Origin: Rhizophagus irregularis | Lineage: Eukaryota | Assembly (NCBI RefSeq): GCF_026210795.1 | Contig: NC_089434.1 | Span: 2,914,001-2,978,000, forward strand | Direction: 5' to 3' | Length of the DNA stretch: 64,000 bases | Shown: positions 23,367 to 59,940 of the stretch, piece after piece | Position numbering within the stretch: the stretch's first letter is position 1 | Layout of the letters: every line of letters starts with the position of its first letter | Translations under genes and position numbers: made by a program | Notes under the pieces: model-generated | Databases searched by the model: none | What the model was told of the DNA's origin: nothing | What the model saw: the letters and a program-made list of their open reading frames with translations, nothing else

Positions 23367-23398
<32 letters not shown>

Positions 23399-29000: not shown

Positions 29001-29128
29001 TAAGAACGTTTATTAACGTTTTTTTACTTCTTTTTTTTGTAGATTCTGGCCTGGAACTTGGAAATGGAGGCCTGTGAGTATTTTAAAGAGAGGGGAAGCA
29101 GGTTTTTTTGTTTTTTTATGTAAGAACG

Positions 29129-29305: not shown

Positions 29306-29318
29306 TAAGAACGTTTAT

Positions 29319-33486: not shown

Positions 33487-33670
33487 TATACATACCATCC
33501 AAATTATTTTGGACTGCTGTATGCCGTAATTATAAGTAAAATTCCAAATTCAATTATAACATCCCAAATTATTTTAGCACTTTACATAGTAAATTATATA
33601 TAAACTGAATGAATTACAGCATTCCAAATTATAATTATGACATCTCAAAATAATTTGGGCAGCATGTATA
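33487..33670. mobile_element. Second, inverted copy of the 29129-29305 MITE family
   Basis: tatacataccatccaaattattttgg ... caaaataatttgggcagcatgtata; diverged 8-bp flanks gtataact/atgtaact. Confidence 0.8.
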
Positions 33671-35027
33671 ATGTAACTTATTTTTTAAAGTACTTTGTTA
33701 AAATTTTAATTATCATGTGAGTGGTAAAATTTTTTTTTGTCATATTACATGAAATTTTTATAGATTTCCATGGAATTTTTGTAAAATCCATAAAAATTAC
33801 ATGAAAACTAGTCCAAAATTTTATATTTTTATTATTGCTACTTAATAAAATTATCCAACTTTAACCCATAATATTAATTAAAATTCTTATTAAATTCTAT
33901 AAAATAATCTGATAAAAATATTCAGTACATGTTGCTTTATCATTTTATTGGTTTAGTTTTTTCTTTTTACTATTCAATTTACAATTTATAAAAATTTGAA
34001 GTTATATAATATTAGTGTAGTTTATAGGTGACAGCCACCATAGTAATTTATATATATTTTTCTAAATAATAAAAGTTTTAAATAGGATAACTATTGCAAT
34101 TTTTAGTTATACTAATAAATATTTAAAATTTTATATAATTATAATTACTATTTTTATAAAAAAGAAATATATTTTAATAAATAATGTTGCTAATCTTAAC
34201 CAAAGGGATAATTTTTCTTCCTTAAGAATTAAAAAAAAATAAACTTTTTTTATGAAATATATAAAATAAATATAATTGGATATTAATCACATAAAAATTT
34301 AGCAATTTTTGGTTTTAAAAAAAATTTTTATTATGAAAAATACAATTTAATTATAAAAATTAAAATTATGTAATTTTCTCAAAAACCATCTGAACAACTA
34401 CCTTTTTTAATTTAATAAAACCTTTTTCTCATAAATTTATATATAATTTTATTTTTAAATTACTATACAAGTCAATATTTTAATTAAAAATTGAAATAAA
34501 AGGAGAGAAAAAGAAATTTTTTCTGGTTAAGTTTAGTAATTTTCTTTAATAAATACAATTAATTTATATAATTATTTTTTTTTTTATATAATAATTATAT
34601 TATATTTATTTTTAACAATACAAAATTTAATTGAATAATAATAAATTTTATTATATAATTAAAATAAAAAATTATAATACTAGTTAATATATATTTAAAA
34701 TATTAATAAATCTGTAGTAATATTTAGATATACAGTCAACTCCCTCTATAGTTACTCCCGTTATAGTCACATTCTACTATATAGTCACACCAGTTGAATA
34801 TTCAAAACACTTTATTATTAAAATCTATCCTATATAGTCACAATCTATCTATAGTCACTATTACACCTATCCTTAAAAATCTTATATTAAAAAGAACCGT
34901 TTATAATCACAGTTATATAAAGAATATATTAAATAACTTGGCATCTAATAATCGTACAAAGATATATCATAGCTTGTTAGAATCGTCTCACTGAGACGAA
35001 TCGAATGGTGGTAGTTTTATCCTTTCC

Positions 35028-36017
35028 TTTGCTAGTGTTTACGGCCAGACACCCCATTGCCTCTTATGAGACTAATACGGAATGCCAATGTGCCCTATCA
35101 TCTTCAATAGCAACCATTAGTACCCCGAGCACTTAATTCCTCAGGTAACAGCACCACTATAGAAGACATCCCCCATCGGGCCATTATAGGCTGATCTGAA
35201 GCTAGGTACACGCTGCCTACTCATCCTATACTCATTGTATGATACTGATACTTAATTTATTTAACAACCTTTAGAGAGCATCTACTTTCATGGAGGACTT
35301 TCGACAGGTAACATCAACCATCTAAGCACTTTTCATACCACCATTTTAGGTACTAAGTCTCACTCAAAGGGCCACTACAGCCCGCGATTACTTAGCACCG
35401 ATAGTACAGTTGTTTACCCCAAGTGGTATACTTTGTAGTGACCACTCGGACGGGAAGGTAGCAGGCTTCTGTCCAGGATCACCCCTTATGGTGGGTATCA
35501 ACCACCAGGGATCACCAACCAGGACCCAAGAAGTGGGGAATCGAACCCCATAACCATACTACCTGTTCTGTGCACGAACACCTTGGTTGGTCTAAGACCT
35601 AACAGAAGGTCAAACTACCACTAAGACATTGCACTCTCAGCTTTACCATCTGATGGACGACCATACTAGCCATTACTGACCCCAAGATGGTATCGGGTAG
35701 TGACCACCTGAACAGAAAGTCCCCCCCAAAGGTATAGTAGTGACCTCAAAGACAGGACTGCGCACATACCAATGGCCTCATAGGGAACGTTAGAACACAT
35801 ACGACCCTTAGTTGAAATGTGCGGCCTAACCGTACACACTAATTCACCATGATGCAGTCCAACTACACTAATCCCTGTACCTTCACGCTATTGGTTGTAG
35901 CGTCTGCAGTAAAATTCTTTTTATTTCCGTAGTCATGGGAATCGAACCTGCGACCTCACCATACTCAGGCTTAATGAGGGTCTCAGTGACTAACCACCGA
36001 GATAGGGTGACCAACCC
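35028..36017 (-). mobile_element. tRNA-headed ~1 kb SINE-like element, subfamily A, copy 1
   Basis: 5' gggttggtcaccc with A-box-like tatctcggtggttag and B box ggttcgattcc; bounded by target copies at 35015-35027 and 36021-36034. Confidence 0.85.
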
Positions 36018-36034
36018 TAGTTTTATCCTTTTCC

Positions 36035-37016
36035 TTTGCAAGTGTTTACGGCCAGACCACCCATTGCCTCTTATGAGACTAATCTCGGGTCTGTGTCCTA
36101 TCATCTTCAATAGGCAACCATTATACCGAGTACTTAATTCCTCAGGTAACAGCACCACTATAGAAGACATCCCCCATCGGGCCATTTTAGGCTGATCTGA
36201 AGCTGAGACACGCCGCCTACTCATCCTATACCCATTGCATGATACTGATACTCAATTTATTTAACGACCTTTAGAGAGCATCTACTTTCATGGAGGACTT
36301 TCGACAGGTAACATCAACCATCTAAGATCCCTTCCATACCACCATTTTAGGTACTAAGTCTCACTCAAAGGCCACTACAGCCCGCGATTACCTAGCACCG
36401 ATAGTACAGTTGTTTACCCCAAGTGGTATACTTTGTAGCGACCACTCGGACAGGAAGTAGCAGGCATCTGTCCAGGATCACCCCTTATGGTGGGTATCAA
36501 CCACCAGGGATCACCAACATGGAGGGGCCAAGGAGTAGGAAATCGAACTCCATAGCCATGCTACCTGTTCTGTGCACGAACACCTTGGTTGGTCTAAGAC
36601 CTAACAGAAGGTCTAACTACCACTAAGACATTGCACCCTCAGCTTTACCATCTAGGACGACCATCTAGCCATTACTGACCCCAAGCAGTATCGTAGAGTG
36701 ACCACCTGGACAGGAAGTCCCCCTCAAGGTATAGTAGTGACCTCAAGGACAGGATTGCGCACATGCCAATAGCCTCATAGGGAACGTTAGAAGAACACCA
36801 TGACCCTTAGTTGAAATGTGCGGCCTAACCGTACACACTAATTCACCATGATGCAGTCCAACTACACTAATCCCTGTACCTTCACGCTATTGGTTGTAGC
36901 GTCCGCAGTAAAATTCTTTTTATTTCCGTGGTCATGGGAATCGAACCTGCGACCTCACCATACTCAGGCTTAATGAGGGTCTCAGTGACTAACCACCGAG
37001 ATAGGGTGACCAACCC
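36035..37016 (-). mobile_element. SINE-like subfamily A, copy 2
   Basis: Full-length repeat of copy 1 between target copies. Confidence 0.85.
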
Positions 37017-37033
37017 TAGTTTTATCCTTTTCC

Positions 37034-37460
37034 TTTTGCAAACAGTCTTATAACATTATTTTTATTTATATTTTAACATCGAAAATTCAAACGAACAATA
37101 TTACAAAAATAAGAAAATAAACTAATAAAAATAAAAAGAGTAGCTTCACGACTCATACAAGCAAAGAAATCTAAACTAAAATAAAATTAAAGCAAAGAAA
37201 AACTAGACTATTACAGAATCGCATACCCCAACTTTACCCGAAGGCCAGTGTGAGTCAACTATCCAACATCCAAAAATCCAGTCCGTTACCAGAAAGAAAT
37301 CCTAAGAGGTTGAACTGTTAAGCAGCGCAGAAAATCCAAGTGCGAGATCCATGATCCACCCCGAATTATAGAAGAGGATATCCAAGAAATCCAGGAATCC
37401 TGAGAAACTGTCGCCAAAGAAGAGTTATTTGTATGTGGAGAAGAAACAATAGGAGAAGAA
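37034..37460 (-). mobile_element. 5'-truncated LINE family A, 3' fragment
   Basis: Encodes ...DSWISWISSSIIRGGSWISHLDFL..LTVQPLRISFW*; 3' UTR homologous to 55003-55267. Confidence 0.88.
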
Positions 37461-37476
37461 AGTTTTATCCTTTTCC

Positions 37477-37633
37477 TTTGCAAGTGTTTACGGCCAGACC
37501 ACCCATTGCCTCTTATGAGACTAATCTCGGGTCTGTGTCCTATCATCTTCAATGGGCAACCATTAAACCGAGTACTTAATTCCTCAGGTAACAGCACCAC
37601 TATAGAAGACATCCTCCATCGGGCCATTTAGGC
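37477..37633 (-). mobile_element. 5'-truncated SINE-like subfamily A, copy 3
   Basis: Only the 3'-most ~157 bp, between target copies. Confidence 0.85.
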
Positions 37634-37648
37634 ATTTTATCCTTTTTC

Positions 37649-40600
37649 TGTGCAAACAGTCTTATGACGTTATTTTTATTTATATTTTAACATCGAAAAT
37701 TCAAACGAACAATATTACAAAAATAAGAAAATAAACTAATAAAAATAAAAAGAGTAGCTTCACGATTCATACAAGTAAAGAAATCTAAACTAGAATAAAA
37801 TTAAAGCAAAGAAAAACTAGACTATTACAGAATCGCATACCCCAACTTTACCCGAAGGCCAGTGTGAGTCAACTATCCAACATCCAAAAATCCAGTCCGT
37901 TACCAGAAAGAAATCCTAAGAGGTTGAACTGTTAAGCGGCGCAGAAAATCCAAGTGCGAGATCCATGATCCACCCCGAATTATAGAAGAGGATATCCAAG
38001 AAATCCAGGAATCCTGAGAAACTGTCGCCAAAGAAAAGTCATTTGTATGTGAAGAAGAAACAATAGGAGAAGAATTTATAGATGGGCCACGTAATTTGGA
38101 AGCAGCCGAGACACTAGCAAGCTAGTCGAATTAATCTTTAACCGAAGTTTTATGTGTAAATTCTGGCTGACATAAAATGTTGTAAAATTTTGTAATTCAA
38201 TAGAGTAAATTCATCAATCGCTAAAGCGCTGTATATAAATTTTCGATACAGAATGATAAAATTTGTATTCATAAAGAAAGAGGAAAGGAATAGGAAAGCT
38301 TAAAATAAGCATGAAAGAAATGAAGTGTAAAAGAAGAATAATAAAAGGAAGGTAATTAATTAATAAGAAACTAGCGCAATTAGCGCATTAAAAAAACAGG
38401 ATGAACAAAATCAGCGGGTAATTCCCACGATGTTCGGAAATCAGAAGGAGCAGGGTAAGGATGTGAATCAAACCAAGGTGCACAAACATCCAATAACATT
38501 AAGATATCACAAGGTTTAACACGACCTAGTTTGAAAGAAAACCGGGTATCACTATTCCAAAGATGTGAAAATGTCGAAGATGAAGCCGATTTGGTGATAA
38601 TAGATTGGATGGCATCTCGAAGATACTTCTTCGATACCGAGGAAGTGTTGTGCTTGGAAATTAATAACCAGAGGAAATTGTGAGAAGGTACATAAATGGA
38701 AGCACTATTCGAGAGTATCCTTCAGACCATATCAATAATGGAACGACTAAAGCCAAGAGTTTTGAAATCTTGATAATCAATAGCAAGGCAGTTCAGACCA
38801 ACAAAAGGACCAGAGGTGGGTTTGTCAGTGATAAAATGACTTGCAACTACAGAAGAGGGATTCAAAACCACTTTTTGGATAGAACCCGTAAACTTAGAAG
38901 ACACGAACGCAACAGAAGATTGATGTGAATGTTCTTTCAAACAGAAGGAAACGTCAGGACGTGAGGATACAAGATTACGTATATTCTGGACAATTGAGTA
39001 ATCAGTAGTAGACATAGTCAAATTATAGGAGGTAGGAGGAATGACTATAGCAGGATCCTTAGTGGCCATCCACATAGAAGAGTCAAGAAGATCGGAGTGA
39101 ACAACATGTCGTGAAAATTTGCTCCAGTCTGATAGAAGGTCTTTATGGCGTACTTGACGAGCAAGTTGTTTCTTCGTAGGGTGGGAGATAGATTTGTGAG
39201 CAGAATATGAGATAAGAGTTCGAGCAGAAAGTGAACCACTGTCGTCCTCAAGAACATGATGAAAAGCATAGGATTTGCGGTAGAAAAGTCCTAGGCATCG
39301 GGAAGTTACATCTTTATAAAAACCATCAGCGTGTCTTTTAGACACACGGTTACAAGGTAAAGCAAAAGGAGGAGAAGGAGGAGGGGGAGGTGTATGAACA
39401 AGTTTTTTGTCATGAATATGACAAGCATGACGAAATTGAGACATAACATAGGCAGCAGGAGTCTTGCAAAACGGGCAACCAAAATAAAGGCCAAGGTAAA
39501 AGCAAGATTGACGATATCGAAATTGAATAAAGGTACGAGTACGTCTATTATTACGATGAGAAGATGACCAACGAGCAAGAGAGGTAACACATTGTGTTAA
39601 TAAAAGCTGGCGTAACCTATTAAAATATTTACGTCGAGCACGGGAGGGAATACGGTTCTGGCGGTAAAAGAAAAAGGTTAAAAATTTTGATAAAATAAAT
39701 TTCAAATTAGGAGAGGGACGATCAGATGTAAATTGAAATGGCTCAGTAGTTGAAAGAAGAGGAGAATTGGTATGAATTGAATAACAATTATCCGAATCAG
39801 GAGTGGGGTCCAAAAGGAAATAACAGTTGCCTCGTCGAATAGAATATAAACGGTTAGAGCCAATATTTCGAGCAGGATGTATCCGTCCATCCAGGATGGT
39901 ACATATAGTGAAAGTGTAAGATGAACACTGTACATTATCATGAAGAAGATGGGCTGAAGTAGAAGTTGCCGGTAAAGGTTCCGCAGGTGTACAATTCAAA
40001 GAAAGGACTGGAGAAGGGACGTTAATGTCATAATCAGCAGTATCTTCTGAAACTGAAATTTGGGGAGTAATAAGAGAGGAGTCTAGGAATGTATTTTGAA
40101 AGGGACTTATAGGTTCGGAAGGACGTGATAAAGGTGGAACCAATAAACGTATTGTAGAAGGAGATAAAACCAGACGCGTAAAAGACAATTTAGTCTTAAT
40201 TTTCTGTGCACGTTTAAAAGATGCAGGGGAAATCATAGAGGATACGCGTTTACAAAGAAATTTATAAGTACGCCGTGAAGGGCGTAAACAATTGGTGCGT
40301 CGTGTAGAAGGGGTACATAAATCTAAGATGAGATTAGGATCAGCCTCGTGTTTAGAAGCCCAAATAGCTAATGGAAGAGGAGGTAGATTATCAATCAATG
40401 GATCATCATGTGATGGATGATCGTCAACAGGGGGGATAGCGAAATCCTTTTCTGAATCCGCAGTAGATGAAAGAGAGTCTAAACGCAAGTGTAAAAGGCG
40501 TTTTTATTCAGAAAGAGAGTCGTCTAGAAGGCGGAGGGGGCCAAAAGCGAGGTAAGCACGTGACTTGGCGGAAGAGTTATCAGGAAAAGAGTTGTAACGA

Positions 40601-40813
40601 GCAAAAAGAGTTTCTTGTTTAAGGGCGCACTTAGCGCAAAGGTCCTCAACTTCGCGAAGTTTGAAAAGAACTTCATCCCAACTCAAGGTTGAGAAGTCGT
40701 GAAAAGAGGCCATAGGCCAGAATAAGAATAGAAAAGATAAAAATAAAAGAAAAAGTAATAAAAAACTTTGGAAAAATTTTTTTTTATTTTTATGTAAATA
40801 ATGTCGTGAGGGC
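37649..40813 (-). mobile_element. Chimeric insert 1: RT-less passenger (38112-40813) fused to a LINE-A 3' tail (37649-38111)
   Basis: Target copies at both outer ends and none at the internal junction gccgaga|cactagcaagc. Confidence 0.82.
38380..40713 (-). pseudogene. Passenger ORF, 777 codons, two premature stops; unknown basic protein with CxxC...HxCxxH
   Basis: One frame from ATG 40713 to TAA 38380, broken only at 40504-40506 and 38722-38724; both positions are sense codons in copy 2. Confidence 0.75.
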
Positions 40814-40829
40814 CGTTTTATCCTTTTCC

Positions 40830-41384
40830 TGTGCAAACAGTCTTATGACTTTATTTTTATTTATATTTAACATCGAAAATTCAAACGAACAATATTACAA
40901 AAATAAGAAAATAAACTAATAAAAATAAAAAGAGTAGCTTCACGACTCATACAAGTAAAGAAATCTAAACTAAAATAAAATTAAAGCAAAGAAAAACTAG
41001 ACTATTACAGAATCGCATACCCCAACTTTACCCGAAGGCCAGTGTGAGTCAACTATCCAACATCCAAAAATCCAGTCCGTTACCAGAAAGAAATCCTAAG
41101 AGGTTGAACTGTTAAGCGGCGCAGAAAATCCAAGTGCGAGATCCATGATCCACCCCGAATTATAGAAGAGGATATCCAAGAAATCCAGGAATCCTGAGAA
41201 ACTGTCGCCAAAGAAGAGTTATTTGTATGTGGAGAAGAAACAATAGGAGAAGAATTTATAGATGGGCCACGTAATTTGGAAGCAGCCGAGATACCCTGCG
41301 ACTTTTCCCAAGCATGGAAAAGAACATTCCGACATAGCCAAATTTCACCATATAATTTGACTTGGAAGTCATTAAGAAGAGGAG
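40830..41384 (-). mobile_element. 5'-truncated LINE family A, 3' fragment
   Basis: PPLLNDFQVKLYGEIWLCRNVLFHAWE...LRISFW* plus 3' UTR, between target copies. Confidence 0.88.
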
Positions 41385-41399
41385 GTTTTATCCTTTTCC

Positions 41400-42377
41400 T
41401 TTGCAAGTGTTTACGGCCAGACCACCCATTGCCTCTTATGAGACTAATCTCGGGTCTGTATCCTATCATCTTCAATGGGCAACCATTATACCGAGTACTT
41501 AATTCCTCAGGTAACAGCACCACTATAGAAGACATCCCCCATCGGGCCATTTTAGGCTGATCTGAAGCTGAGACACGCCGCCTACTCATCCTATACCCAT
41601 TGCATGATACTGATACTCAATTTATTTAACGACCTTTAGAGAGCATCTACTTTCATGGAGGACTTTCGACAGGTAACATCAACCATCTAGTACCCTTCCA
41701 TACCACCATTTTAGGTACTAAGTCTCATTCAAAGGCCACTACAGCCCGCGATTACCTAGCACCGATAGTACAGTTGTTTACCCCAAGTGGTATACTTTGT
41801 AGTGACCACTCAGACAGGAAGTAGCAGGCATCTGTCCAGGATCACCCCTTATGGTGGGTATCAACCACCAGGGATCACCAACCAGGACCCAAGGAGTAGG
41901 GAATCGAACCCCTTAGCCATGCTACCTGTTCTGTGCACGAACACCTTGGTTAGTCTAAGACCTAACAGAAGGTCTAACTACCACTAAGACATTGCACCCT
42001 CAGCTTTACCATCTAGGATGACCATCTAGCCATTACTGACCCCAAGCGGTATCGTAGAGTGACCACCTGGACAGGAAGTCCCCCCAAGGTATAGTAGTGA
42101 CCTCGAAGGACAGGACTGCGCACATGCCAATGGCCTCATAGGGAACGTTAGAAGGACACCATGACCCTTAGTTGAAATGTGCGGCCTAACCGTACACACT
42201 AATTCACCATGATGCAGTCCAACTACACTAATCCCTGTACCTTCACGCTATTGGTTGTAGCGTCCGCAGTAAAATTCTTTTTATTTCCGTGGTCATGGGA
42301 ATCGAACCTGCGACCTCACCATACTCAGGCTTAATGAGGGTCTCAGTGACTAACCACCAAGATAGGGTGACCAACCC
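41400..42377 (-). mobile_element. SINE-like subfamily A, copy 4
   Basis: Full-length copy between target copies. Confidence 0.85.
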
Positions 42378-42394
42378 TGGTTTTATCCTTTTCC

Positions 42395-45300
42395 TGTGCA
42401 AACAGTCTTATGACTTTATTTTTATTTATATTTAACATCGAAAATTCAAACGAACAATATTACGAAAATAAGAAAATAAACTAATAAAAATAAAAAGAGT
42501 AGCTTCACGACTCATACAAGTAAAGAAATCTAAACTAAAATAAAATTAAAGCAAAGAAAAACTAGACTATTACAGAATCGCATACCCCAACTTTACCCGA
42601 AGGCCAGTGTGAGTCAACTATCCAACATCCAAAAATCCAGTCCGTTACCAGAAAGAAATCCTAAGAGGTTGAACTGTTAAGCAGCGCAGAAAATCCAAGT
42701 GCGAGATCCAAGATCCACCCCGAATTATAGAAGAGGATATCCAAGAAATCCAGGAATTCTGAGAGACTGACGCCAAAGAAGAGTTGTGTTGAGGTGGAGA
42801 AGTAGTATTAGGAGAAGAATTTGTAGATGGGCCACGTAATTTGGAAGCAGCCGAGATACCCTGCGACTCTTCCCAAGCATGGAAAAGAACATCACTAGCA
42901 AGCTAGTCGAATTAATCTTTAACCGAAGTTTTATGTGTAAATTCTGGCTGACATAAAATGTTGTAAAAATTTGTAATTCAATAAAGTAAATTCATCAATC
43001 GCTAAAGCGCTGTATATAAATTTCTGATACAGAATGATAAAATTTGTATTCATAAAGAGAAGGGAAATAGGAAAGCTTAAAATAAGCATAAAAGAAGTGA
43101 AAAAGGGAAGATGATTAAAAGAAAGTAAAAGAAAGTAATTAATTAAAAGGGAACTAGCGCAATTAGCGCATTAAGAAAGTAGGATGAACAAAATCAGCGG
43201 GTAAAACCCACTGTGATCGAAAATCAGAAGGAGCAGGGTAAGGATGTGAATCAAACCAAGGTGCACAAACATCCAATAATGATAAGATATCACAAGGTTT
43301 AACACGACCTAGTTTGAAAGAAAACCGTGTATCACTGTTCCAAAATTGTGAAAATGTTGAAGAGGAGGCCGATTTGGTGATAACAGATTGGATGGCATCG
43401 CGAAGATACTTCTTTGATACCGAAGAAGTATTGTGCTTGGAAATTAATAACCAGAGGAAATTGTGAGAAGGTACATAAATGGAAGCACTATTCGAGAGAG
43501 TATCCTTCGGACCATATCAATAATGGAACGACTAAAGCCAAGAGTTTTGAAATCTTGATAATCAATAACAGGGCAGTTTGGACAAACAAAAGGACCAGAG
43601 GTGGGTTTGTTAGTAATAAAATGACTTGCAACTACAGAAGAGGGATTCAAAATCACTTTTTGGATAGAACCCGTAAACTTAGAAGAAACGAACGCAACTG
43701 AAGATTGATGTGAACGTTCTTTCAAACAGAAGGAAACATCAGGACGCGAGGATACAAGATTACGTATATTCTGAACAATTGAGTAATCAGTAGTAGACAT
43801 AGTCAAATTATAGGAGGTAGGAGGAATGACTATAGCAGGATCCTTAGTAGCCATCCACATAGAAGAGTCAAGAAGATCGGGGTGAACAACATGTCGTGAA
43901 AATTTACTCCGGTCTGATAAAAGGTCTTTATGGCGTACTTGACGGGCAAGTTGTTTCTTCGTAGGGTGGGAGATGGATTGGTGAGCAGAATATGAGATAA
44001 GAGTTCGTGCAGAAAGTGAACCATTGTCGTCCTCAAGAACATGGTGAAAAGCATAAGATTTGCGGTAGGAAATTCCTAGGCGTCGGGAAGTTACGTCTTT
44101 ATAAAAACCATCAGCATGTCTTTTAGACACACGGTTACAAGGTAAACTGAAAGGAGGGGAAGAAGGAGGGGGAGGAGTGTGAACAAGTTTTTTGTCATGA
44201 ATATGACAAGCATGACGAAACTGAGACATAACATAGGCAGCAGGAGTCTTGCAAAACGGACAACCAAAATAAAGGCCAAGGTAAAAGCAAGATTGATGAT
44301 ATCGAAATTGAATAAAAGTACGAGTACGTCTATTATTACGATGAGAAGATGACCAACGAGCAAGAGAGGTAACACGTTGTGTTAATAAAAGCTGGCGTAA
44401 TCTATTAAAATATTTACGTCGAGCATGAGAGGGAATACGGTTTTGTCGGTAAAAGAAAAAGGTTAAAAATTTTGATAAAATAAATTTTAAGTTAGGAGAA
44501 GGACGATCAGATGTAAATTGAAAGGGATCAGTAGTTGAAAGAAGAGGAGAATTGGTATGAATCGAATAACAATTATTCGAATCAGGAGTGGGGTCCAAAA
44601 GGAAGTAACAGTTGCCTCGTCGAATAGAATATAAACGGTTAGAGCCAACATTTCGAGCAGGACGTATCCGTCCATCCAGGATGGTACGTATTGTGAAAGT
44701 GTAAGATGAACACTGTGTGTGATCATAAGGGAAGGCTGAAACAGAAGTCGCAGGAAAAATTTCCGCAGGAATACTATTTAAAGAAAGGACCGGAGAAGCT
44801 AGAGGAGGAACGATATTGTCATAATCAGCGGTATCTACTAAGGCTGAAATTTGGGGAGTAATAAGAGAGGAATCCAGAAAATTATTTTGAAAAGAATTCT
44901 TAGGCTCGGAAGGACGTGGTAAAGGTGGAACCAATAAACGTATTGTAGAAGGGGATAAAACCAAACGCGCAAAAGACAATTTAGTTTTAATTTTCTGTGC
45001 GCGCTTAAAGGATGCAGGGGAAATCATAGAGGATACGCGTTTACAAAGAAATTTAGGAGTACGCCGTGAAGGGCGTAAACGATTGGTGCATCGTGTAGAA
45101 GGGGTACATAAATCTAAGATGATATTAGGATCAGCCTCGTGTTTAGAAGCCCAAATAGCTAATGGAAGAGGAGGTAGATCATCATTCATTGGATCATCAT
45201 GTGATGGATGATCGTCAACAGGGGGGATAGCGAAATCCTTTTTTGAATCCGCAGTAGACGAAAGAGAGTCCAAGCGCAAGTGTAAAAGGCGTTTTTGTTC

Positions 45301-45609
45301 AGAAAGAGAGTCGTCTAGTAGGCGGAGGGGGCCAAAAGCGAGGTAAGCACGTGACTTGGCGGAAGAGTTGTCAGGAAGAGAGTTGTAACGAGCAAAAAAG
45401 AGTTTCTTGTTTAAGGGCGCACTTAGCGCAAAGGTCCTCAACTTCGCGAAGTTTGAAAGAACTTCATCCCAACTCAAAGTTGAGAAGTCATGAGAAGAGG
45501 CCATAGGCCAGAGGAAGGATAAAAATAAAAGAAAAATTAATAAAAAACTTTGAAAAAAATTATTTTATTTTTATGTAAAAATTGTCGTGAGGGCGAACGG
45601 GAGAGAGAT
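42395..45609 (-). mobile_element. Chimeric insert 2: passenger (42893-45609) fused to a LINE-A 3' tail (42395-42892)
   Basis: Junction gaaaagaacat|cactagcaagc; target copies at the outer ends. Confidence 0.82.
43444..45504 (-). CDS. Passenger ORF copy 2 (686 aa; C-terminus shortened by a 2-bp insertion), unknown function
   Basis: Intronless long ORF closely similar to copy 1. Extra AG at ~43497 (ttcgagagagtatcc versus ttcgagagtatcc) shifts the frame. Confidence 0.7.
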   Translation of the reverse strand: MASSHDFSTLSWDEVLSNFAKLRTFALSAPLNKKLFFARYNSLPDNSSAKSRAYLAFGPLRLLDDSLSEQKRLLHLRLDSLSSTADSKKDFAIPPVDDHPSHDDPMNDDLPPLPLAIWASKHEADPNIILDLCTPSTRCTNRLRPSRRTPKFLCKRVSSMISPASFKRAQKIKTKLSFARLVLSPSTIRLLVPPLPRPSEPKNSFQNNFLDSSLITPQISALVDTADYDNIVPPLASPVLSLNSIPAEIFPATSVSAFPYDHTQCSSYTFTIRTILDGRIRPARNVGSNRLYSIRRGNCYFLLDPTPDSNNCYSIHTNSPLLSTTDPFQFTSDRPSPNLKFILSKFLTFFFYRQNRIPSHARRKYFNRLRQLLLTQRVTSLARWSSSHRNNRRTRTFIQFRYHQSCFYLGLYFGCPFCKTPAAYVMSQFRHACHIHDKKLVHTPPPPSSPPFSLPCNRVSKRHADGFYKDVTSRRLGISYRKSYAFHHVLEDDNGSLSARTLISYSAHQSISHPTKKQLARQVRHKDLLSDRSKFSRHVVHPDLLDSSMWMATKDPAIVIPPTSYNLTMSTTDYSIVQNIRNLVSSRPDVSFCLKERSHQSSVAFVSSKFTGSIQKVILNPSSVVASHFITNKPTSGPFVCPNCPVIDYQDFKTLGFSRSIIDMVRRILSRIVLPFMYLLTISSGY

Positions 45610-45642
45610 TTAGTTTTATCCTTTTTGGTTTTATCCTTTTCC

Positions 45643-46620
45643 TTTGCAAGTGTTTACGGCCAGACCACCCATTGCCTCTTATGAGACTAATCTCGGGTCT
45701 GTGTCCTATCATCTTCAATGGGCAACCATTATACCGAGTACTTAATTCCTCAGGTAACAGCACCACTATAGAAGACATCCCCCATCGGGCCATTTTAGGC
45801 TGATCTGAAGCTAGGTACACGCCGCCTACTCATCCTATACCCATTGCATGATACTGATACTCAATTTATTTAACGACCTTTAGAGAGCATCTACTTTCAT
45901 GGAGGACTTTCGACAGGTAACATCAACCATCTAGTACCCTTCCATACCACCATTTTAGGTACTAAGTCTCACTCAAAGGCCACTACAGCCTGCGATTACC
46001 TAGCACCGATAGTACAGTTGTTTACCCCAAGTGGTATACTTTATAGTGACCACTCAGACAGGAAGTAGCAGGCATCTGTCCAGGATCACCCCTTATGGTG
46101 GGTATCAACCACCAGGGATCACCAACCAGGACCCAAGGAGTAGGGAATCGAACCCCATAGCCATGCTACCTGTTCTGTGCACGAACACCTTGGTTGGTCT
46201 AAGACCTAACAGAAGGTCTAACTACCACTAAGACATTGCACTCTCAGCTTTACCATCTAGGACGACCATCTAGCCATTACTGACCCCAAGCGGTATCGTA
46301 GAGTGACCACCCGGACAGAAAGTCCCCCCAAGGTATAGTAGTGACCTCAAGGACAGGACTGCGCACATGCCAATGGCCTCATAGGAAACGTTAGAAGGAC
46401 ACCATGACCCTTAGTTGAAATGTGCGGCCTAACCGTACACACTAATTCACCATGATGCAGTCCAACTACACTAATCCCTGTACCTTCACGCTATTGGTTG
46501 TAGCGTCCGCAGTAAAATTCTTTTTATTTCCGTGGTCATGGGAATTGAACCTGTGACCTCACCATACTCAGGCTTAATGAGGGTCTCAGTGACTAACCAC
46601 CAAGATAGGGTGACCAACCC
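45643..46620 (-). mobile_element. SINE-like subfamily A, copy 5
   Basis: Full-length copy; host sequence resumes at 46641 after the last target copy. Confidence 0.85.
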
Positions 46621-46782
46621 TTGAGGTTTTATCCTTTTCCGATCACTGGCTGACGAGTTATTCAACAAAATGTTAAACATCAGCATTATAATATTTCTTG
46701 ATTTACGTTTACTGCGCCATTTAACATTTTGCTAGATTTCTCGGTACCTAGTGATTGTAAAAAGACGATTTATAGCTCGTTG

Positions 46783-47130
46783 GAATCGCCACATCGAGAC
46801 GAATCGAATGGTGGTAAGCTCACCTCTCTGTGATCAATATTGACGGAGTTATTACTTAAAAACCATTTAATATTTTTTAATTTCGGAAATTGATCTAGTG
46901 ATTGGATTTCGATGTATCTTATACCATTAGATTCGTCTCATCAAGATGAATCGAATGGTAGTAAGATCGTTTTTCTAGGATCAATATTGGTAGAGTTATT
47001 ACACAAAAACCATTAATATTTTTTTAATTTCGGAAATTAATCTAGTGATTGGATTTCGACGTATTTTATACCATTAGAACCGTCTCATCAAGACGAATCG
47101 AATGGCGGTAAGATCATCTCTCTACGATTA
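46783..47130. repeat. 147-bp-period internal repeat of the host element with an imperfect palindrome
   Basis: gaatcgaatgg at 46801, 46948 and 47095 (also 34998); core taccattagattcgtctcatcaagatgaatcgaatggta. Confidence 0.8.
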
Positions 47131-47408
47131 ATATTGGCGAAGTTACGATACAATAAAGTTTTAAGTATAATTCTGGCTAAAATTATGTTAATTTTTGGCC
47201 GGAATTATGATATACAAATATAAGAAATTTTTTATATAGTCACATCTCTTTATAATCACCAAATATGGAGGATCATCGCAACTCTTTCCTGAATTTTTGA
47301 AAATACTAATAAAATTTATTTTTGAAATTTTCGTTCGAAAATTTCTAAGTGCTCGTTCAAAATACTAATATTTCCACAGTTGCTTTCCTCTTTACTGAGC
47401 TTTATACT

Positions 47409-49529
47409 ATGACTTCACCTCCAGCTCCTTCTGTTATTAACCCGGATATTCCGCCACCACCGCGTCCTGTTACTTCTACTCCCTCTGGAGACCGACCTTT
47501 GTCTCCTACCAATACCGCTGACGCTCCTAATAAACGTACACGTACTGTCTCTGATGACGCGATGAATGTTGATATAACTTCGCCCTCAGCTCCTGCTTCC
47601 ACCTTTACTTCTACTGTTCCTTCTGGTCTTCCTGTCAACAAAGTCCACGTGATTACTTCTCCTCAAAATATTACCACTCCTGTTGAAACTGTTGACGCTT
47701 CTATCCATGCTCCCTCTAACACCAGTGGTAAAGGCAAAGCTGTTGTCTTTGATGTCCCAGAACGACGACCATCTCCCGATGGTAATGCTGCTGCTATCAA
47801 ATCTGCACCCTCTCGTTATCATGCTGCGGCCTATCTACGTGACGCGCCTGACGCGTTCAAAGCTAAATTCACCACCAATCGCTCTATATGTGACGAGGTG
47901 GATTGTTCACTCTCCCGTTATTCCTCTTATGGCGCTCGCGCACGATGTGATGGATTAGGCGATAACAAGAAAATCCTTGTCCTCTTTAATAATCATGATG
48001 ATTATACTGATTGTATCACCTCTCCACATGCCGATCTCCTCGATTTGGCCTTCAGTCATTACTCCCCTGCAGACGCCAAGCTCAGTGACGAGATGAAGTC
48101 CTTATTCGTCACTGATATCCCACTTTTTCTAACTGAGACTCAAGTCCGTCAGGCATTTTCCCGATATGGTACTGTAATCAAGTGCAAACTTACTCCTAGG
48201 AAACATTACTATAATGGACATATCCAGTTTTCCTCCGCGGATGCAGTTACCCAATTTAATGATATTTGGGCGATCATTTGCCTTGGTAATTCTTTACGTG
48301 TCTGCTCGGCATCTTTCTCAAAAACCCAACGCGACAGCCGTAGAGAACATGTCGCCATCCTTGCTGGCATCCCAAAGAATATTAAAGAAGCTGATCTGTT
48401 GGAAATTGCTACTCAAGTTAACGCTAAAGCCCTTAACGTTCCTCTATCTATCAGCTCCTACAAGCCTAAACCCTATGTATATTTGAACTTCTCCTCGTTT
48501 GAATCTCTTGAAGCTGCCAAAGAAATGACCGTGGCTTTCCGCGGCAAAGGTTTAACTTGGCACCCTCCTAATGAAGCTCACACTTTATGTCATATCTGTG
48601 AATGTTCGGGTTGCTCTCCTTCTGTATGTAGCCCTCGCCCTACACGAAAAGTGGACGATCGCCTTAACAAACTTTACTCTCGCTTCAATGCTGGCCCTAG
48701 ACGAGGCCGTCAGGATTCATGACAATCACGTGACAATTCTAATTCCCGTTCAAGATCGCGTTCCAATTCTCGATCTCGCAATAATAATTCCTCTTCATCT
48801 CGCTCTAACAACAGCAATAATAAGTCTAACACTTCTCGTCCCAATACTCCTCGAAGTAGTAACCGGACTAACAATAATAATAATAATCCCAGGAACAATG
48901 GAAATTCTTCCGGACCTACTCAACCTCCGCACAGACCTCATCCTATTATTTCTACGACACCTACTTCTTCCTCTGACAATCCTGCCCCTACGCTTCCTCA
49001 ACATATTATTGATGAACTAAAGGCGCAGATTAAAGAGATCGCTAACACCCTCCATACTCTCGAGGAAACTGTCTCTTGGATGAATGATACTATCACGTCC
49101 CATGAATATAGGCTATCTGAGCTTGAATCAATGATGAATTATGATAACCCTGGTGACTCTGATTTGTATCCGCCTCGTGATGATCATGAAAATCAAAATT
49201 ATTCTTATGATAATGGATGGGATGATGCTCCAACCCATGACACGAATTCTGGTTTCAATCTTCCTCCCCATACTTCCTCTTCTCTTATGGACGTTTCTCC
49301 TGATGCTTCTTTCTCAGCTTTGGATCCTAGCTCCGTCCTATCAAAACGACATGTCCCCTTACCTGTTTCCCGACCTACTAATATCACCCCCGACGCTAAC
49401 ACTTCCCGTTTGCAATCAGAAATTTTTAATGTTACTACTACACAAAAGAATCTTTCTGCCCAACTTGGTTCGATTATGGAAAAATTGGACTCCTTCTCTC
49501 CTTCAAAACCCTCCCCTTCTAATGATTGA
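47409..49529 (+). pseudogene. LINE ORF1 (RRM-like domains, Cys cluster, S/R/N-rich tract, coiled coil), one premature TGA
   Basis: LFVTDIPLFLTETQVRQAFSRYGTVIKCKL..GHIQF; YVYLNFSSFE; CHICECSGCSPSVC. The frame stays open past the stop at 48720-48722. Confidence 0.85.
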
Positions 49530-52500
49530 ACACCAACTTGTATCGGGTGTCTCACAGGGATTTCACCCCCCTGATAGTGCGATACCTAATTTTAATAGTC
49601 CTTATAATCCCCCTTCTCCTTCTTTTTCTTCCCCTCTTATTAACTTTGGACAAATCAATGTTAATGGATTATGTTCCCCTGTACGACAACTGCATTTGTT
49701 AAATTATTTCCTTCATTCTTCTTTTGGCGTTTTATCTTTAAATGATACTCGTCTTACTTCTTCTAGTGCTAAATTTATTTATCAAAATGAACATTTCCAA
49801 TATAATTTTAAATCTTATTGGGCTCCTTCCCCCTCTAATTCGCGACCACATGATGGTGTTGGTCTTTTACTTCGCCATCCTTTACACAAACATGTTCAGA
49901 AGATTGATCCCTGGAAAGGTCGTCTTTTAAAATTAGATCTTTTTTTTCATCAGACAAAAATTTCTATTATCTCTGTTTATATTCCTCCTTATCATTCTAT
50001 TCATTATAAAGAACGTGATGTTATTCTTGTTCAACTTAATTTATGGCTTGATCAAGCCCGTTCCAATAACTATCACGTAGTTATCCTTGGTGATTTTAAT
50101 GCAGATAAAATTTCACATTCACATCTTTCTCAACATCATTTGAAAATTTTACGATCACTCTCTTCTCGATATTTTACGGATCACCAATCCCATATTTCCT
50201 CAATTTCAGGTCCTAGTCCTACCTTTTATCATCAAAATGGTTCTTCAAGACTTGATTATATCTGGTCATCCCCTGGATTTCCTGCTCCCGGTCTTTTCTC
50301 TCAAGTTGCAACTTGTCCTAAGCTGAATGATAATCAATTTACTGATCATTGTGTACTTATAACGGCCTTTGATTTTAGCTCATGTTTCGCTATTTTATCC
50401 AAAGCTCGATTAAAGCAGAAAAGCGAACAACGCACCATCTTTCTTTACAAAAATTTGAAAGATGACACTTGGGACAAATTTTCCAATGAAGTAAACTCAC
50501 GTCTTGAGTTATACTTGATCACACACCACCCTTCAGTATCTTCACTTTCAGCTCTTTCATTGGACAAACTTTGGCACGTTCTTAAACGTTCTATTCTTGG
50601 TGGTGGCATTGATTCTCTACCATTCCAACATGTATCCAATACTCATCACCATAAATATCCTCCTGAACTTACCATGCTTATTGCTGTCAACAAATTCTTG
50701 GATAGATTATTGTTTAAATTGACCACATCTAGGCCTAGTCGTCCTGCTCAAATTTCACAAATGATTAATTCTTTACCAATCCAATTAATCCTCCTTAAGT
50801 CTCTTTTAACAGATTATACTATACCTTCTTATAGTACAACACCGCTTTCTACTTTTGTCAAATTTTTACGTTCACAAAAAGCTTTGGTCTCAGCTTATCT
50901 TTCCACACAATTTCATCAGCATCGTGTAGATTCCATTGAATATTATACTGCTCTTAGAGATGAACATTTCTCTACATCCTCGGGCTCTTTTATTTCTTCA
51001 GCCCTATCAGTGGAACATCGTTCTATCGTCCTTGATAGAGTTTTGGTTGTTATTGACTCCAAACCCACATTATTTACTGATCCTTCAGATATTAAACAAG
51101 CTGCTATTAAACACTTCCAATCAGTTGTCACTCCTCCTTTGGTCCAGTATTCTTCTACGGATTCATTTCCTTCACGATGGCAACGAGCTTATACTCCTCT
51201 TCCAGATATTGATTCGTCCTTATATAACTCGGTTATGTCTCCTATTCTGGCCGATGAATGGAAAAACACTCTCAATTCTATGCCTAATAATAAAGCCTCT
51301 GGTCCTTCCAAGATCTCTTATGAGATGCTCAAACATTTAACTGGAGAAACTTTCAATTTGTCCCTTGTATTAGCCAATGCTTGTCTCATTCATGGAGATA
51401 TTCCTGCCGATTGGCGTGAAGCGCTTGTTTATCCCATTCCAAAGCCTCATGAATTTGACGCCCAATTGAAGAATACGTGACCTATCACTCTATTGGAAAC
51501 AGTACGAAAATGTGTGGTTAAGGTCGTTACAACTCGACTATCAAAAATCCTAGCCGACAATCAAGTGCTCCAAGGTGGTAATTTTGCCGGATTACCAGGC
51601 GGCTCCACCGACATTCCTATTAAGATGCTTGATGCTATTATTCATCAACGACGCTTTGATAAAAGCGATGACCAAGAACTATGGGTTGTTTCTCAGGACA
51701 TTTCTAAGGCCTTTGACTCAATTGATTTGAACATGCTTAGACTGGCTTTAATCCGTCTGCATATTCCGTCTTTATTGATCAAATTTATCATTAACCTTTT
51801 TACAAGGCGTAATAATAAAATTATTACACATCATGGTGATACTTCTGGATATAGAGTTAGAATTGGTATTGACCAAGGTGAAATCATCTCTCCACTGTTA
51901 TGGGTTATATACTTGGATCCGTTACTTACCACACTTAATCGAGAAGCTTGTGATCCCTTTATTTTGAAATCTTCTGCATTATTGGATTATTCTCCAATTG
52001 AATATGAACAACATAATTTTCCCGTTTCACATATTACATTCATGGATGACTCTACTTTGATTGCTTCATCTAAACAAGGAATTGAAGATCGCCTTTATAT
52101 CACTGCTGAATTTTACACTTTAAATAATACTCAAGCAAATTCAGCAAAATATATCCTTCTTTCTTCTGAACAATTTTCTCAAATTATTGTATTTGATCTA
52201 TTCCCATCTTCTTTAAATACGATTCATACCCTTACTTTAAAGGCGGTAGCCTTATCTACATCTTTTCGGTTTTTAGGTGTTTGGTTTAACCTTTTGGCTT
52301 CTTCTCGTTTCGTTCATAACCAAACTGTTTCCATGGTCAAAGACATGGCCGCTCTACTCAGTCCTAAAAAACTTTTAGCACAACATATAGCTTATCTTTA
52401 TAACGTTGTCCTACTTCCGAGGCTAGAATTTCGCCTACAAACCACATTATTTGCAGAATCCACCATTAATCGCATGGTTTCTCCAATGCTTTCTCTTATT

Positions 52501-55002
52501 CGTCAGAAGGCTGGTTTGGCCTCAGTCACTCCTCTTTCCACACTCTTCACACTGTTGCCTTTCTCTATTCAACAAGCATTTGGTCGATTTCTATCATCTC
52601 ATGTGGCTTCATGGCAGAAAATTTTTTCTCACCCTTCATATAAGCTCTTTGCTAATTATATGATTACTTATCTCCAAGGTTTTTTGGACTGTGATGTCTG
52701 CCCTTCTACTATTGACCTGGAACCATGGTCCCACACCTTTTCTTTGCGAACACATTCTTTATTTAATTCTTTATTGTTCTCTTCTCGTTTAAATATCACG
52801 TGGTCTTTACTGTTCCGACCTCCGAGGAAAGATTTACGTCCGGCGATTCCACTCCAGTCTATTTTACCAAATGATTTATTTACTTCCATGAAAAATGTTC
52901 GGAAAAATTTCTGCACTCATTTTCTTGCTCAATTGATTACACCGTGTGGCTCTCGACTTCTCTCATGGAAAGATTTACGTTTTCTTAAACGAGTATCGAA
53001 CAAAGGATCTGTGCCTGCTTGGTTTAATTATTTGTTCAATCTTATTGTTATTCCTAATTCACTTTCTTTTTTTATTTTACAACAATTTAGAATTCCTAGT
53101 TCTCATACCGTAGCTTCTATTTCTTTTATAGATATTAGTCGAAATTATTGGTTTAACCCTCAATGGGCTATTTCTTTTAATCGCGATACTAACTCTTTCC
53201 TCGTTGGCCGTGTGATTACTACCTATCCTGCTCCACGTAATGAAGCTCTTATTTCACATTGGATTGCGTCATCGGTTGATGATTTACTTTCTGAATTTAC
53301 TGCATGCCAAGGTTGTGCCTCTGCTATTCCGCGATCCTCTACCTCTAAGACTTTGATTAAACGATGTCCCTCTGAAGGATGTTTCTCTTATGTTCCGTTA
53401 TCAAGTTTGATCCGTTATCCTACGAAACCTCGTACTTATATACATGCGGATACTCATTCGGTTTCACTTTCTGCCTCGTTAGGCTATGCCAAATCTCTTT
53501 TACTATTTCATCTTTTTGCTCCGGTTCGCTTACTTCCTACGAATGAACTAGTGCTTAGGATTTCTGATATCCAACTTCCTTCTTCGGTGTTTACCCTTTA
53601 TATTGATGGTTCCTTCCTTTCTCCTCCTAGTCATCCGGCATCCTCGATGGCTTATGCATGGACTGCTATAGATCCTGATGGATTTATTTTGGAATCCCAT
53701 TATAATATCATCTCTTCCATTTTTCCTTCTGCTTTACGTTCAGAAGTTTTTGCTTTATTGCACGGATTGGACTCCCTTTCTCGGAATTCAAAGATTACTG
53801 TCGCCACTGATTGTGCTCAATTACTTTCTTTATGGTCTTTGTATGTGGATGCTCCTTTTATTCCCAGAATGCTTAAAGAATCCAATTACCTTTTGTGGTC
53901 CACCATACGCACTATTATGTTGCAAAAGAATCTGGATGTTACCTTGATCAAGGTTCCTGCTCATGCTGACGACCCTTTGAATAATCATGTGGATGCATTA
54001 GCTAAAGCCGCTCATACTGACTCACATCTTTCTTCTTGTCCACCATCGGAATTGATGGCTCCTTGCATTTTACAATTTAATTCCTTACCTGTGGATATGA
54101 ATATCCGGAAATTTATTAGAGATATTTTTGACGCCAAAAGTCTTTTAACTCTTGCTGTATTACCAAGATTTAATTCCTATTCTTCAACTTCTGATATTGA
54201 TTGGGCTTGCACCAAATTTTGTCTCAATAACATTAAGCATTTTGTCTCTCATCAGAATGGCCGTTCCGAGTTTTGTGGTTTCCGTATCAAGCTACTTTTA
54301 GATATGCTTCCAACGCTTACAACTCTTCAGAGACGAAAGCCTCATCTTTATAATCCAAGTTGGCTTTGTCCTCAATGTAATTCCTTTCCTGAGACTTTAG
54401 ACCACTTGTGGACTTGTCCTTATATTTTACCGGAATTTAGCCCTTTACAAACTTTTAAAACATTACTATTGGCTCTTCAGACTACTTATCTTGATAATTT
54501 CCTTTCCGCGTCATCTTTAATCCCTTTACCAGACTCTTTTGCTGCTGAATTTATGGCTCTTAATTGTTGGGATTGTGACCCTCCTTCAATTTCCTGCCTG
54601 CGACTCACAAGAGGACTTATACCGATATCTTTGACAGAATTTCTTGGAATTTATTTTTCTTCACCTACCATATGGTCTATCTTAGATACACCTTTGCACG
54701 ACTTTCATTTTGACCTTTATGTTCAAATCTGGTTGTGCCGATCCATTTTCTTTCATCATTGGGAATTAGCTCAAGGCATTACAAAAAAAATGAAATCGTC
54801 AGCTCTTGGGCCTTCTTCTATTCTTCGACCTTCCTCTAACATTCCTCTTGACTCTTCGACACCTTCCTTGGTGACAGCTTCCTTGGATTCCTGGGATTCT
54901 TGGGTTTCCTCTTCTATAATCTATGGGGGATCTTGGATTTCGCATTTGGATTTTTGGCGCCGCTTAACAGTTCAGCCTCTACTTAGGATTTCTTTTTGGT
55001 AA
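49522..55002 (+). pseudogene. LINE ORF2 (AP endonuclease, reverse transcriptase, RNase H, CCHC finger), one premature TGA
   Basis: INVNGL, HDGVG, ILGDFN, RLDYIW, TDH; QDISKAFD, GIDQGEIISPLLW, FMDD; LYIDGS..SEVFA..TDC..KVPAH..NNHVD; CPQC..HLWTC. Stop at 51478-51480 (KNT*PI). Confidence 0.93.
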
Positions 55003-55282
55003 CGGATTGGATCTTAGGACATGCTGGATAGTTGACTCACACTGGCCTTCGGGTAAAGATGGGGTATGCGTTTCTGTAATAGTTTAGTTTTTCTTTACTT
55101 AATTTTATTTTGTTTAGATTTCTTTACTTGTATGAATCGTGAAGCTTGTTCTTTTTATTTTTTATGTTTATTTTCTATATTTGATATTTGTAATATTGTT
55201 CGATTTGTTTATTGTACTTTTCGTTTAAATTTAATAATAAAAGATAAAGTCATAAGACTGTTTGCTCATAATCACCAAATAT

Positions 55283-56082
55283 CAACTAAGGGTCATGATG
55301 TCCTTCTAACGTTCCCTATGAGGCCATTGGCATGTGCGCAGTCCTGTCTTTGAGGTCACTACTATACCTTAGGGGGGACTTCCTGTCCGGGTGGTCACTC
55401 TACGATACCACTTGGGGTCAGTAATGGCTAGATGGTCGTCCTAGATGGTAAAGCTGAGGGTGCAATGTCTTAGTGGTAGTTTGACCTTCTGTTAGGTCGT
55501 AGACCAACCAAGGTGTTCGTGCGCAGACAGATAGCTTGGTGATTGGGTTCGATTCCCATTCTCTGATGGGCCCTGGTTGGTGATTCCTGGTGGTTGATAC
55601 CCACCGAAGGGATGATCCTGGGTAACACCTACAAGCTTACTGTTCAGGTGGTCACTACAAAGTATACCACTTGGGGATTACAACTGTACTATCGGTGGTG
55701 GGTAATCGCGGGCTGTAGTGGCCTTTGAGTGAGACCTAGTACCTAATATGGTGGTATGGAAGGGGTCTAGATGTTTGAAAGTTATCTGATGAAAGTCCTC
55801 CGTGACAGTAGTAGTGGTGAGGGGTTATAATAGTAGCCATTACAGTATCATGCAACGGATTAAAGGACGAGTAGGGTGGTGTTCAGCAGATTCGAAGGCC
55901 TTCGGATCCCTGGGATAAGTCCTTGCGTTTCAGTTGTGGTGTTGAATTGTCCCTGTTAAAAAGGTGGCGGGGATGGTTACATCATACATAGGTGAGGATG
56001 ATGCAATGAACGACCTACCTCCATAGCCTTCAATAGAGGGTGCGGAAAGTAGTGGCCACTAAACTTACAAAACACTTGTAAA
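55283..56082 (+). mobile_element. 5'-truncated SINE-like subfamily B, copy 1
   Basis: Core homologous to subfamily A with a different 3' region; bounded by target B at 55268-55282 and 56083-56097. Confidence 0.85.
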
Positions 56083-56097
56083 ATAATCACCAAATAT

Positions 56098-58564: not shown

Positions 58565-58583
58565 ATAATCACCAAATATATAT

Positions 58584-59593: not shown

Positions 59594-59940
59594 ATAATCA
59601 CCAAATATGGACTGTCCCAAATGTGTGACTATAAAGAGAGTTGACTGTACCGGTTATTTTTATATTAAAAAATCTGTCAAATTTACTAGTTAGTTTAGTT
59701 AGTTTAAAATTACATTAATATTTTATTTATTATAATAATATTAATGTATTATTTAATTTAAATTTACTAATATTATAAAAAAATAAAATATAAAGTATAT
59801 TGTAAGTTAAATTTATATATATTTTATTACAAAAAAATTTAATAAGTATTTCTATTGATTTTTTATTAAAAAAAAATAATTAGTACAACTAATTCTTTAA
59901 AAAAAATAGCTAATTGATAAGTTATAATAAGATCCAAATT

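Follow-up and report, generated by a model that had tools for sequence, protein, structure and literature searches.

Template jumping by the reverse transcriptases (RTs) of long interspersed nuclear elements (LINEs) is usually viewed as an accident that captures small RNAs. A fungal system with the same outward layout as the one reported here is MINE of Magnaporthe grisea, for which the portions of the paper drawn on give 31 WEIRD-MGL chimeras and 28 switch sites in 33 elements, six of them used twice, and report that no solo copy of WEIRD was found (PMC2104539). Partial texts likewise supply the other precedents: the U6/L1 chimeras (Moldovan et al. 2019, PMC6789731); the in vivo jumps of R2 to U12 and tRNA, one of which, to U12, is the probable origin of a multicopy subfamily (Eickbush and Eickbush 2012, PMC3414825); HAL1 (half-L1), derived from L1 and encoding ORF1p (PMC5753468); and, as tandem arrays, Tx1-Mar with SINEU-3 in Mariner-N4_AMi (Kojima 2015, PMC4494074) and R1 of D. 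willistoni (PMC3414825). Here we describe a locus of Rhizophagus irregularis (contig NC_089434.1 of assembly GCF_026210795.1, positions 2,914,001 to 2,978,000 of the forward strand; the window, 64,000 nucleotides (nt), whose own numbering is used below) in which an RT-less element of ~2.7 kb, hereafter the passenger, stands twice 5′ of the 3′ tail of a LINE, LINE-A. A first reading of the window (the original prediction) had proposed that the passenger is a dedicated satellite or helper RNA spreading by template switching. The analysis favors a modified form of this idea: the passenger encodes a protein and is probably mobilized by the LINE-A enzyme jumping onto the end of the passenger RNA.

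The two passengers in the window end at the same base, ...gactagcttgctagtg, just as the original prediction had stated, and their final 60 nt are identical. Each passenger part is fused directly to a LINE-A tail in the same orientation (joints at 38111/38112 and 42892/42893), and in LINE coordinates the two breakpoints are separated by 36 nt, close to the ~40 bp first estimated. A scan with the 15-bp target repeat of the surrounding array, allowing up to two mismatches, gave 12 matches in the window, 11 at array borders and one unrelated at 24051, and none at either passenger/LINE joint, which agrees with the claim that no target copy is present there. The chimeras are instead flanked by the repeat, at 37634/40815 for copy 1 and at 42380/45613-45628 for copy 2; since it marks all other unit borders, each passenger with its tail is a single insertion. 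At 45613-45642 the repeat is doubled 5′ of passenger 2 with an imperfect inner copy, which may reflect slippage or re-priming at the top-strand joint.

The tails themselves were predicted to be different variants, tail 1 resembling the free fragments, and this is borne out: compared with free tail 3, tail 1 has 6 differences in 462 positions and tail 2 has 17 in 498, 13 of these within 42758-42823. Tail 2 looks mosaic. The patch lies in a Ser/Pro-rich stretch near the end of ORF2 (ORF, open reading frame), and similar variants occur in the passenger-joined gene models P0175, P0184 and P0188. A recent local duplication of the two units was considered and rejected, because the passenger ORFs are 93.6% identical and belong to different subfamilies of the protein tree while tails 1, 3 and 4 show only 6-11 differences per pair. 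Sequence near the passenger 3′ end is better kept than the entire trailer, the final 150 nt being 97% identical between the copies vs 92% for the whole 3′ untranslated region. The last 45 nt can form two small hairpins (probabilities of 4e-4 and 3e-5 by single-base shuffles of the last 60 nt, a post hoc test), and their C-UUCG-G and G-CUUG-C loops are extra-stable tetraloops; the total folding energy of the passenger 3′ end is ordinary (z +0.2 to -0.6).

Contigs from 8 of 24 listed public sequencing runs (X numbers below) were compared with the window joints, and all counts of joints and loose ends refer to the matches listed. All 11 listed contigs that reach the passenger 3′ end region, from six of the eight runs, run on into a LINE tail; none has a non-LINE 3′ flank, and runs X15 and X4 have no passenger-end joint among the matches listed. 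The constant end is thus combined with five or six DNA breakpoints, according to whether ~453 and ~455 count as one. The placed breakpoints leave tails of 438 nt, with five A after ...ctagtg (X1; a second X1 contig, its inner letters not given, lies at this point); ~453 nt, on a variant LINE and with six plus-strand T (X12, one contig that joins 133 nt of passenger to ~90 nt of LINE-like sequence); ~455 nt (X1); 462 nt, without an A-run, as in window copy 1 (X1); 497-498 nt, with three T in X13 and one T in window copy 2, a joint also spanned in X5 with just 28 letters on the LINE side; and 526-529 nt, with five T, three of them available from the LINE (X19, which may be RNA, a guess, and whose joint is used as DNA-type evidence). 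A-runs stand at most joints of known letters, and those at the 438 and ~453 joints are missing from the LINE. At the other extremity, the passenger 5′ end in X2 and X13 is the same as in copy 2, and an X2 contig holds a passenger 5′-truncated at 40403 and directly adjoining the target repeat, which fits the expectation from reverse transcription.

Gene models give the same picture. Five of 231 fetched proteins (P0175, P0184, P0188, P0039 and P0032) read from the passenger ORF into the C-terminal peptide of the LINE at E 1e-6 or better. P0175 reads across the copy-2 joint, P0184 and P0188 require tails of at least 552-561 nt, and P0032 is a gene model of R. diaphanus, so the passenger-LINE pairing is not confined to one species. 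A further protein, P0203, passes from the passenger into an off-frame reading of the start of LINE ORF1 (score 104 vs 91 for the best of 100 shuffles) and may represent either a jump from an almost full-length LINE or no more than the following unit of an array. Contigs and gene models together yield six or seven joint points, more than the one or two that the original prediction gave as the mark of a single ancestral fusion plus deletion.

In the passenger, a leader of ~100 nt and a trailer of ~270 nt flank an ORF of ~779 codons. The ORF is interrupted by no introns in either window copy and is broken differently in each; the frameshifts of copy 2 may partly be assembly errors in base runs. 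Comparison of copy 1 with copy 2 over 770 aligned codons gave dN 0.042 and dS 0.152, a ratio of 0.28 (Fisher p 1.5e-13; simple counting with no transition correction, an omission that lowers the ratio somewhat), and on this measure the ORF is under purifying selection. A protein search returned 33 relatives, the named ones from R. irregularis and R. diaphanus, with R. irregularis records matching at up to 92% identity over the entire query. Four intact copies of 779 amino acids (aa) lie on four contigs of one locus-tag/accession series, and another such series holds whole or partial records on at least 11 contigs that differ in length, a count based on 15 of the largest cluster's 21 members. 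A quick tree built from 27 proteins places the window copies in separate subfamilies, each with close outside relatives, and the subfamilies are made of near-identical, dispersed copies, many of them partial. By these relationships the passenger is a member of a dispersed multicopy Rhizophagus family.

A profile search extended the family to 202 proteins at E 0.001 or better, most matching only the core domain (profile positions ~260-490). Among nine of these that were looked up, five are named, from Rhizophagus and Glomus cerebriforme, and two are labelled DUF8211 in UniRef (E 1.5e-19 and 4e-17). Pfam gave no DUF8211 match for the passenger or for the two DUF8211-labelled relatives, and no match of any kind for the two window ORFs or for 37 of 39 family proteins, the other two having weak unrelated matches; DUF8211 is not mentioned in the full-text literature searched. 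The core is basic (pI 10.4), and its C-x2-C and C-x2-H motifs are kept in ~90-98% of the rows covering them, a residue make-up that makes zinc binding likely and suggests RNA binding. Against the ORF1 protein of the local LINE the passenger protein (P0002) scored 53, a value reached by 28 of 100 shuffles, hence no detectable similarity, and an RRM is present in LINE ORF1 only.

The full-length protein model is poor (pLDDT 36), being confident only for a helical stretch at about residues 11-88, and the core model is confident. The core had no match at E 0.001 in the Foldseek PDB and viral sets, and its best VIA-align hit (Z 3.9, root-mean-square deviation 4.2, 87 aligned) is no clear fold match, which does not demonstrate a new fold. 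A PDB sequence search with the passenger protein found no match, and the best ESM Atlas hit (0.78) was not usable. Longer fused forms numbered 0 among 5733 candidates of 1039-2965 aa and 0 among 2626 of 1365-3895 aa, which is weak evidence. The exact passenger-end pattern had no match in metagenome contigs and 0 of 400 candidates from a protein scan of them were confirmed, nor was the passenger present in the viral contigs (0/15) or prokaryote genomes (0/1) searched.

If the LINE-A enzyme does jump, the course of events would be as follows. The enzyme would nick the target, prime there and copy LINE RNA from its 3′ end, often stopping after ~0.4-0.55 kb and then either finishing or jumping, after ~0.44-0.56 kb, to the passenger RNA end; such early stops are seen in the free LINE tails, which are 427 and 555 nt long in the window and ~231, 393 and 423 nt long in the runs. 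Transcription of the passenger would give an RNA whose last letters are ...ctagtg followed by a few A, and a LINE cDNA ending in T could pair with those A. Two breakpoints (498 and 529) do lie in T-runs of the cDNA and the others do not, and the A-runs at the 438 and ~453 joints, because they are not in the LINE, point to a short adenylated RNA end as their source. After the jump, passenger and LINE tail would share a single pair of flanking 15-bp target repeats. If an existing chimera were transcribed by read-through, the RNA would end in the LINE 3′ end and could be copied as a unit, multiplying one joint, while a chimera transcript that stops at the passenger's own terminus would undergo a fresh capture. 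In the last and weakest step, the basic, probably zinc-binding protein would bring its own RNA into LINE particles in cis, which would explain the purifying selection.

Several observations weigh against this account. What is seen is the footprint expected of a jump and not the jump itself, and in six contig joints the shorter side amounts to only 22-30 letters; the bar for bridging is 31 letters, and the X5 contig (28) falls below it. The breakpoints cluster within ~125 nt, and the references comprised only 498 and ~150 nt of tail, so the list is biased toward short tails. The window, X13 and P0175 share the 497-498 breakpoint, and the passengers concerned are of two subfamilies, which also fits an old fusion followed by recombination. 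No A stands at the joint of window copy 1. In three more contigs (X1, X5 and X2) the alignment begins 17 nt inside the passenger, and these may derive from one old diverged copy; solo passenger copies may exist beyond the matches listed, and some runs may be of the same strain.

Part of this evidence is what would be expected if the passenger and its tail were a composite non-autonomous element, arisen from one or a few old fusions and spreading only as a unit, the diversity of joints being due to later deletion or recombination with LINE tails. The 497-498 joint is common to several sources and subfamilies, tail 2 has its mosaic appearance, and two joint contigs are unusually deep: 441 in X12 vs ~30-85 for its other listed LINE-side contigs, and 260 in X5 vs ~6-50 for the other contigs listed. 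Such depths are a hint of copy number and no count of it, and they hint that a single joint can multiply. Deletions would not, however, be expected to halt at the same passenger base every time, or to leave five or six A foreign to the LINE at the 438 and ~453 joints, and we regard spread solely as a fused unit as unlikely. The recurrent joint and the deep contigs nevertheless indicate that the passenger probably also spreads in this way. In sum, repeated capture is well supported, and fused-unit spread and recombination likely contribute to it; what stands of the original prediction is the repeated capture at a fixed end, and what has to be changed is that the passenger encodes a protein instead of being just a helper RNA, and that it probably has a second way of spreading.

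The passenger could also be an ordinary host-gene mRNA that is often captured by jumps, with the chimeras as by-products and selection acting on the source genes. This would account for the selected ORF, and its distant relatives occur in Rhizophagus and Glomus cerebriforme in gene models of which none fetched carries a LINE-A peptide; the authors of MINE, in the parts of their paper drawn on, read WEIRD as a housekeeping RNA (PMC2104539). A host gene is nonetheless hard to reconcile with an intron-less ORF in both window copies, with subfamilies of near-identical, dispersed and often partial copies, and with listed contigs that show no 3′ flank other than LINE, and this origin seems to us quite unlikely. 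Ligation of passenger RNA to cleaved LINE RNA before reverse transcription, as described for U6/L1 in the text drawn on, would leave the same DNA footprint, and the clustered breakpoints could be nuclease sites; it requires a 2′,3′-cyclic phosphate end (PMC6789731), whereas the variable A-runs at the joints suggest an adenylated 3′-OH end, making ligation very improbable. A passenger that retrotransposes by means of its own A-tail and takes LINE tails as its insertion sites would suit the A-runs at the 3′ end; this is highly improbable, being contradicted for the window copies, which have no LINE sequence or second duplication at the 5′ end and, like two X2 contigs, abut the array repeat.

Returning to capture by jumping, a more specialized form may tentatively be considered, in which the passenger is a jump-dependent satellite of the LINE: it would have no LINE-recognition tail of its own and would offer a structured, short-adenylated landing pad, its zinc-binding RNA protein, of an unrecognized fold, would load its own RNA into LINE particles or provoke the jump, and the wider DUF8211-like families in mycorrhizal fungi would be satellites of other LINEs. 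If true, this would define a class of protein-coding parasites of retrotransposons.

The chimeras belong to a nine-unit array (Table 1) made of four ~980-nt copies resembling short interspersed nuclear elements (SINEs), one SINE 3′ fragment, two free LINE tails and the two passenger-tail chimeras. The SINE-like family (~980-1010 nt) has further copies at 55284-56082 and 58581-59593, carries a B-box-like motif near +72 and a second near +470, has a 3′ end resembling the last bases of the LINE, and is recognized by neither ARAGORN nor Rfam. The family member at the array's far end is the most diverged (95% vs 97-98%), as expected if each insertion rebuilds the site where new units would be added. 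A second array (47252-59609, plus strand) has its own 15-bp repeat and starts with a full-length LINE, which, judging by its relatedness, shows what the driver looks like. This copy (47349-55002) is probably inactive, because stops interrupt ORF1 (48720-48722) and ORF2 (51478-51480).

Both arrays lie within one small element with terminal inverted repeats (TIRs), at 34731-59650, as two polar arrays of opposite orientation with their own LINE and SINE subfamilies (82-84% identical between arrays); their target repeats share no clear sequence. The host element carries 147-nt tandem repeats (46748-47188 and 34937-35013), a diverged unit of which contains the minus-array target, and a solo right end of the same element at 23171-23370 has an empty plus-array target near 23313. 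Elsewhere in the window, a LINE from a second family, broken and on the minus strand, lies at 23981-28240 (with RNase H and zf-RVT matches), and 28273-33670 holds nested inverted-repeat elements with ~120-nt tandem repeats at 28724-29130 and 31664-32350; a TIR pair lies at 29129/33670, and a piece of that element occurs in gene model P0080.

Table 1. Features of the passenger locus in window coordinates
Feature	Position	Strand	Remarks
Passenger copy 1	38112..40814	-	2703 nt; without ~18 nt of the 5′ end present in copy 2
Passenger ORF, copy 1	38380..40713	-	778 codons; in-frame stops 40504-40506 and 38722-38724; intact relatives 776-779 aa
Conserved basic core domain, C-x2-C ... C-x2-H	39124..39942	-	related to records labelled DUF8211; model pLDDT 91
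Passenger 3′ end, two small hairpins	38112..38156	-	C-UUCG-G (3 bp), G-CUUG-C (5 bp); identical in copy 2, 42893-42937
LINE-A 3′ tail 1	37649..38111	-	463 nt; fused to passenger 1; A-run and target repeat both absent
Passenger copy 2	42893..45612	-	2720 nt; ORF 45504-43163 with three small frameshifts
LINE-A 3′ tail 2	42395..42892	-	498 nt; variant patch 42758-42823; fused to passenger 2 via one A
Free LINE-A tail 3	40830..41384	-	555 nt
Free LINE-A tail 4	37035..37461	-	427 nt
~980-nt SINE-like unit, tRNA-like head	41400..42379	-	other copies 35029-36019, 36035-37018, 45643-46625; 3′ fragment 37477-37633
Head-to-tail array	35014..46640	-	nine units, one 15-bp target repeat at borders
Array repeat starts	35014, 36020, 37019, 37462, 37634, 40815, 41385, 42380, 45613 (partial), 45628, 46626		
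Full-length related LINE	47267..55267	+	ORF1 of RRM type; endonuclease, RT and RNase H; tail shares ~82-84% identity with array tails
Small TIR element hosting both arrays	34731..59650	.	~0.95 kb without inserts; terminal inverted repeats at 34731 and 59650

The full-text literature searched, mycorrhizal transposon papers included and with supplements, curated repeat libraries and subscription papers outside its scope, contains no description of the passenger, which curated libraries may list as an unclassified or a LINE family. Nor was a template-jump route for a protein-coding passenger found described in that literature; it is known for a non-coding RNA in the rice-blast fungus. Because MINE is a close fungal precedent, the layout is less new than first thought; what is new is that the head of these MINE-like chimeras comes from a family that encodes a protein, is under selection and lacks an RT. 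The family's repeated occurrence 5′ of LINE tails, in R. irregularis and R. diaphanus, points to jumping as a possible way of life. As an acceptor RNA that is natural, large (2.7 kb) and defined at its end, the passenger also lends itself to studying what makes an RT jump, an expanded family of 'hypothetical proteins' gains a testable role, and part of the unclassified repeat content of mycorrhizal genomes, put at two-thirds of their repeats in the text drawn on (PMC11075540), gains a name.

Compared with the systems described in the sources above, as far as the parts drawn on describe them, the array resembles those of Tx1-Mar/SINEU and R1, in which tandem LINE or SINE insertions are separated by one target duplication; tandem units with a single target duplication inside a TIR element are present here, and crocodilian Tx1-Mar likewise has two hot spots in opposite orientation inside a DNA transposon. 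This likeness concerns the array and not the passenger. HAL1, like the passenger, is non-autonomous and LINE-dependent, with one ORF and no RT, but the passenger protein is not detectably like the local LINE ORF1 and has no fixed link to the LINE tail. The U6/L1 and R2 chimeras share the copying of a second RNA 5′ of the LINE; there the RNAs are small and structural, whereas the passenger is a multicopy protein-coding element. MINE is likewise fungal and unites a fixed 5′ passenger with variably 5′-truncated LINE tails in the same orientation, flanking target repeats and reused switch sites, and four of its five listed hallmarks are found here (a truncated LINE 3′ part, varying truncation, a direct same-orientation joint and flanking repeats). 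As to the fifth, a 5′ part that copies a cellular RNA in full, copy 2, X2 and X13 share one 5′ end, copy 1 is shorter by ~18 nt, and one X2 copy is truncated at 40403. It differs in its head, since WEIRD is 1.1 kb and non-coding whereas the passenger is 2.7 kb with a selected ~779-codon ORF, and in its tails, which span 230-5461 nt as against ~440-560 nt in the passenger-joined tails seen. MINE joints lack microhomology and show the motif GCC*A/U, whereas the Rhizophagus joints carry short A-runs; inspected by eye, none of four placed breakpoints (438, 462, 498 and 529) has the exact motif, and the letters at the X19 site are GTC*A, which is among the variants listed for MINE (PMC2104539). The passenger-LINE chimeras therefore resemble MINE but are not MINE itself, being distinguished by a coding head, the absence of the switch motif and the A-runs at their joints.

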